This document shows, piece by piece, positions 42,351 to 42,684 of a stretch of 64,000 nucleotides of DNA. Location: the NCBI GenBank assembly GCA_951406725.2, contig OX597816.1, positions 62,620,001 to 62,684,000 on the forward strand, given 5' to 3'. Within the stretch, counting starts at the first letter, position 1. The number at the start of each line of letters is the position of its first letter. The position numbers were made by a program, and so were the translations under genes. This stretch comes from Octopus vulgaris. Its lineage: Eukaryota. A model generated the notes under the pieces. That model worked only from the letters and a program-made list of their open reading frames with translations, was not told the DNA's origin and did no database searches.

Positions 42351-42404
<54 letters not shown>

Positions 42405-42494
42405 AGTGGATAAATGAATTATCTTATTACGGATAATTCGTGAGCAGTCATCTAAAAACTTGTTGTGCATTTTGTTGGCAAAAGAAGTTCCTGG

Positions 42495-42580
42495 ATTTTC
42501 CTGAAGAGAAAGCTGCATAATGGACTCCTTATTCATTCGGAATTAGGGATTTTGCAGACTTCGAAACCTATGTCGAAAAT
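42495..42580 (+). ncRNA. Type I hammerhead ribozyme, intact core, GUC site, extended stem II
   Basis: attttc CTGAAGA gaaagctgca...tgcagacttc GAAA c-ctat-g TC gaaaat; perfect 6-bp stem I; predicted cleavage after 42574. Confidence 0.87.
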
Positions 42581-42634
42581 AAAATAAAGGAATTTTGTTA
42601 AATCTTCGTTCAGCTCCATTCTTTCCTATACTTA

Positions 42635-42684
<50 letters not shown>

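Follow-up and report, generated by a model that had tools for sequence, protein, structure and literature searches.

The island at 42402-42637 of the 64,000-nucleotide stretch of Octopus vulgaris DNA that we analysed (the window) is one insertion of an apparently endonuclease-bearing (EN+) Penelope-like element (PLE) resembling the Hydra clade, in which a sense piece of the pseudo-LTR and an inverted piece of the same element are joined head to head. As the sequence-only reading had noted, the island lies between two (TA)n tracts, neither of which is assigned a strand; they occupy 42353-42401, probably half of the target microsatellite, and 42633-42695. The island is not a free-standing ribozyme unit, array or circle but a 5'-truncated, two-armed PLE insertion. 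The sense arm is a 197-bp pseudo-LTR piece on the plus strand (42438-42634), corresponding to -137 to about +60 of the element relative to the predicted cut site of its hammerhead. The inverted arm is a 39-bp piece on the minus strand (42402-42440), which was mapped on locus L022 to about +177 to +215 of the element and terminates at the far of two fixed 3' ends. The two arms share a 3-nt microhomology at their head-to-head joint (42438-42440).

In a genome search in which 40 of 2266 candidates were scored, island positions 37-235 showed 93-99% identity to dispersed copies at 30 loci, and positions 1-39 matched other copies in the opposite orientation, ~115 bp further downstream than the main match. 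The arm-arm joint has one match genome-wide and is thus unique, and an exact 29-mer of the family has 705 matches in the genome. The tandem array of the unit that the earlier reading had suggested looking for was found neither at the island, nor in the 30 loci examined, nor in 100 arms that we mapped, and none of these places held the short tandem units, each with a hammerhead, that define non-LTR retrozymes. Animal non-LTR retrozymes, as described in the sections of PMC7229834 and bioRxiv 10.64898/2026.07.22.740005 at hand, have in common with the island a type I hammerhead, a non-coding sequence and a relation to PLEs, but they form short tandem arrays, whereas the island stands alone as a fragment of a coding element.

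Arm ends and the origin of the island

The arms were mapped for the first 100 of the 705 29-mer matches in chromosome order, a sample in which the exact 29-mer favours young copies. Their 3' ends fell at +56 to +67 from the predicted cut in 58 arms, at +201 to +215 in 41 and at +78 in one, where the alignments overrun the border of the TA tract by a few bases. The island uses the near fixed site at one end and the far one at the other. Many of the first 30 arms had an inverted partner, as a rule with the other fixed end. (TA)n adjoined 95 of the 100 arms as compared with 6% of random positions, which is the insertion preference of the Hydra clade of PLEs.

These ends are what one two-armed insertion of a Hydra-like PLE family, truncated at its 5' end and with both DNA ends primed in (TA)n, would leave, and we hold this origin of the island to be very probable. 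The element's enzyme would cut both strands of the (TA)n tract and copy the element RNA at each of the two DNA ends. Priming at the near start site (~+60) would give the 197-bp sense arm and priming at the far site (~+215) the 39-bp inverted arm, and the two copies would be joined at the 3-nt microhomology. The hammerhead would be the element's pseudo-LTR ribozyme, acting as a dimer through a palindromic helix III in tandem transcripts. The family, its ORF, the fixed ends, the TA flanks and the joint were observed directly; the enzymatic steps, the promoter and the cleavage we infer. According to the part of PMC11167929 (Frangieh et al. 2024) covered here, a PLE protein of the anole, Poseidon PAc, cleaves AT-rich DNA in vitro on both strands, extends each of them and starts at two internal RNA sites, which define the tail. 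Two internal reverse transcription start sites, extension of both strands and AT-rich targets are common to both systems, although Poseidon PAc belongs to another clade, and its start sites lie close together inside the ORF, whereas those of the octopus family lie in the 5' UTR, ~155 nt apart, at AU-rich RNA positions. Uncut RNA is the main template of Poseidon PAc; here, 80 of the 100 arms cross the cut site, suggesting that the templates were mostly uncut or re-ligated. Four of the 100 arms start exactly at the predicted cut (P 0.013, or about 0.02 when the local mean is recounted) and eight within 2 nt of it, a weak, post hoc signal.

A possible but rather unlikely alternative is that the island goes back to a short RNA, non-autonomous and SINE- or retrozyme-like, which started at the promoter in the pseudo-LTR and was copied in trans, and not to a truncated copy of the full-length RNA. 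The family has motifs ending near -170, which we take to be CCAAT, TGACGTCA and TATA, and the sense arm of the island starts below them, at -137, and so lacks them. Just below the TATA box at -176, 15 of the 100 arm 5' ends (12 insertions, paired arms) fell at -143 to -162, as against four in the flanking 58 nt, in a window chosen post hoc; this cluster fits a transcription start there. However, the sequence is the PLE's own pseudo-LTR, the 5' ends spread to -600 and beyond, the 30 loci and 100 arms hold no short tandem array of the unit, and a full-length RNA begun in an upstream pseudo-LTR would carry the same stretch.

The element family

Longer copies of the family have an ORF of 890-934 codons (typically ~895 aa) upstream of the hammerhead, and some lie in 3.6-kb tandem units; in the seven elements examined, the hammerhead was always about 590-680 nt past the stop codon. 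At locus L051 (G000:C1:119516315-119524486), a sister subfamily has three tandem 3.6-kb units; the identical scores of many 899-codon frames point to recent activity. A fold search with the predicted structure of the ORF (pLDDT 73) matched reverse transcriptases (E 1e-7), with TERT among the best matches, and the family therefore has the single ORF with a telomerase-related reverse transcriptase that is typical of EN+ PLEs. Pseudo-LTRs, tandem and inverted truncated copies, a tail and a type I hammerhead in the pseudo-LTR, all of them EN+ PLE features, were also found. The ORF contains the motifs DKT, YRDD, CxxC, CxH and a C-terminal Y(I/V)G; compared by eye, these match the Hydra alignment given in the portion of the PMC8557442 supplement at hand. 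As in Hydra, the family has DKT together with CxxC and CxH flanking E and N, and CCHH is absent by eye. The Y(I/V)G motif aligns with homologues and by eye with the Hydra endonuclease; the one homologue of the ORF with a name is from Argonauta. Because the ORF matched nothing among Pfam and PDB sequences and its model found no GIY-YIG structure among the fold matches listed, the endonuclease assignment rests on motifs. A Naiad identity was considered and dropped, as the endonuclease-like part is C-terminal.

Two hallmarks are missing. RWL stands in place of RWK at L051, L052 and L054 (homologues have RWK, RWR, RWA or RWM), and the CxCX5C linker is absent from the full frames and from all three of these family rows; 11 of 12 homologues have a CxC...C linker and the twelfth is a partial protein. 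Judged by motifs and by-eye alignment, the family therefore appears to be a Hydra-like EN+ PLE and not a strict member of Hydra. In the sections of PMC8557442 available to us, on which all comparisons with that paper rest, Hydra-clade PLEs such as Hydra-1_Obim resemble the family in a single ORF with the reverse transcriptase followed by a C-terminal endonuclease (an endonuclease-like part in the family), in DKT, CxxC and CxH, in (TA)n targets, in a type I hammerhead with a short palindromic helix III and in an inverted truncated copy at the 5' end. They differ in a shorter ORF (709 aa against ~895 aa), a unit of less than 3 kb against 3.6 kb, RWK against RWL, a tail of 30-40 bp against ~155 nt, and a CxCX5C linker, which in the family is replaced by a low-complexity stretch. 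In 26 Hydra rows of File S2 of the same paper, stem II is ~12-26 nt by our own reading, as compared with 55 nt in the family; the published lengths possibly reflect a descriptor bias.

PMC8557442 links the CxCX5C linker to (TA)n targeting. At L051, L052 and L054 the ORF lacks this linker, yet family copies adjoin (TA)n, so that the family offers a natural test of the linker hypothesis; it is useful for study in that its intact ORFs are young, its two start sites are sharply defined and it targets TA although the linker is missing. PLE hammerheads in the available part of Cervera and de la Pena 2014 (PMC4209133) lie in pseudo-LTRs, mostly in solo truncated copies and opposite-strand pairs, and have a palindromic helix III and predicted low-activity dimers; their helix II is 6-8 bp, whereas the island has a 10-bp helix and a 35-nt extension. 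A hammerhead in the pseudo-LTR is thus a normal part of such elements, and it is the long stem II, the long tail and the linker-less TA targeting that set this family apart.

Hammerhead core and stem II

A descriptor scan bore out the canonical GUC hammerhead claimed for 42495-42580: all core nucleotides of this type I motif are intact on the plus strand, with the predicted cut after 42574, and 40 shuffled windows gave on average 0.075 loose and no strict chance matches each. The motif comprises a 6-bp stem I (42495-42500/42575-42580), the CUGAAGA core box (42501-42507), stem II of 55 nt (42508-42562), a GAAA box, a 2-bp helix III with its loop (42566-42573) and GUC at the predicted cleavage site. 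At the gathering score, Rfam reported no hammerhead in the window, only a match to U6 snRNA (26496-26599, plus strand, 101 bits) that departs from the Rfam consensus at a few positions. Folded without constraints, 42490-42590 was no more stable than its shuffles (z 0.02), stem II alone gave z -2.1 against mononucleotide shuffles, and RNAalifold on 28 copies returned a weak fold (-3.2 kcal/mol) different from the hammerhead.

In the family, the 8-mer at helix III stays perfectly palindromic across subfamilies via U-A, U-G and C-G, which fits the dimeric cleavage predicted for tandem transcripts by analogy with other PLE hammerheads (PMC4209133). In the window copy, the palindrome is broken by a private C at 42568, where the family has A. 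The C was seen in one of the 100 matches listed, contigs from four of four public sequencing runs have A at this position, and the change may have arisen by mutation or through an error in the assembly. It shifts the predicted homodimer energy from -7.0 to +0.4 kcal/mol. Because it lacks the family TATA box and carries this palindrome-breaking change, the island copy is likely inert, and the locus is ordinary PLE debris, likely dead. That the host has domesticated the ribozyme for a regulatory role at the locus is scarcely credible: the intact core nucleotides would suit such a role, but the island is 96-99% identical to dispersed copies, its joint is unique and the private change weakens the predicted homodimer.

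Stem II contains a proximal helix of 10 bp (42508-42517/42553-42562) and a distal hairpin (42526-42534/42540-42549), both on the plus strand. For 28 copies from four subfamilies, retained from 38 sequences by dropping four regex matches outside the family and six length variants or near duplicates, stem II was aligned. In the proximal helix, three pairs were changed on both sides, two of them with G-U intermediates, representing a few events on the tree and not 28 independent ones. The covariation by which the sequence-only reading proposed to judge the extension is thus present between subfamilies at the proximal base, but not in the distal tccttattc/gaattaggga hairpin that it named, where none of nine pairs was compensatory in either the computed register or that reading's own. 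An A-U pair adjoining the distal hairpin was flipped in five rows. Stem II is 55 nt long in all four aligned subfamilies, and in two of them the distal pairing is weak or different. An 8-nt deletion in stem II was seen at three loci, which have common flanks and were therefore counted once; for the same reason, this variant was rejected as proof of mobility.

Between distant subfamilies, the distal part is identical at 24-28 of 35 positions as compared with 46-58% of four-fold sites (binomial P 0.008 and 0.002 for two pairs), suggesting that it is under constraint, though not demonstrably as a helix. The earlier idea of a protein-binding handle would make the distal stem II a selected RNA bound by the element's protein, assisting or gating cleavage. 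The fixed length and the excess of identity over four-fold sites speak for it, as does the report, in the part of PMC11167929 covered here, that the hammerhead of the anole PLE needs the protein of its element for cleavage. Nevertheless, the handle is unlikely: besides the lack of compensatory pairs, the divergent pairing in two subfamilies and the deletion variant, long stems of different families have no sequence in common, and the 5' UTR beside the distal stem II is equally conserved (71-88%), so the constraint may act on DNA or on the whole region. A broader conjecture, which we consider speculative and improbable, is that in PLE hammerheads of this lineage a long stem II has replaced the contact between loop I and loop II and turns cleavage on when the element's own protein binds it, and that the family, which lacks the zinc-finger linker proposed for the task, targets (TA)n and picks its two start sites through AU-rich pairing between RNA and target.

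Long stem II in other hammerheads

The claim that a long stem II recurs in this DNA was confirmed. A genome sample of 40 evenly placed 10-kb stretches (399,900 bases) contained 21 type I motifs, as against none in reversed or shuffled controls. Seven of the 21, with a stem II of 13 nt, lie in one retrozyme-like tandem array of 359-bp units (L122:3082-4600), five in one orientation and two in the opposite one. Among the 14 dispersed type I motifs, nine have 49-94 nt between the core boxes, a few of them weakly paired. In the window, the descriptor scan also recovered the long-stem motifs that the earlier reading had listed at 1922 (minus strand, 57 nt) and 6755 (60 nt); a further type I hammerhead (27578-27624, plus strand) has a short stem II of 14 nt.

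The three long-stem families had been called unrelated. This is true of their stem II sequences, which when compared had nothing in common, but the family at 1922, like that of the island, is a Hydra-like PLE. Its hammerhead (1922-2009, minus strand) belongs to a second, very young family of this type with copies 99% identical, in which the CxCX5C linker is retained and the linker region is long and rich in Asn. The third family is represented by a head-to-head two-armed insertion at about 6520-6872, and the window also has a mirror copy of the 6755 motif. No ORF related to that of the island's family was found in 33 loci of this third family (14 + 19), and a 41-nt stem II variant occurs in loci L050/L163.

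In the literature searched, which took in part of the PMC8557442 supplement, we found no published PLE hammerhead with a long stem II; there was none in the portion of PMC6155905 at hand, and the "long helix II" in the corresponding portion of PMC13725137 is 6 bp. Descriptors with short spacers would miss motifs with a long stem II, and hammerhead counts in such genomes may therefore be low. In the methods and File S1 of PMC8557442, cephalopod Naiads are labelled 'HHR_half_core', with core halves 35-50 nt apart; the descriptor may have overlooked long-stem or permuted hammerheads among them.
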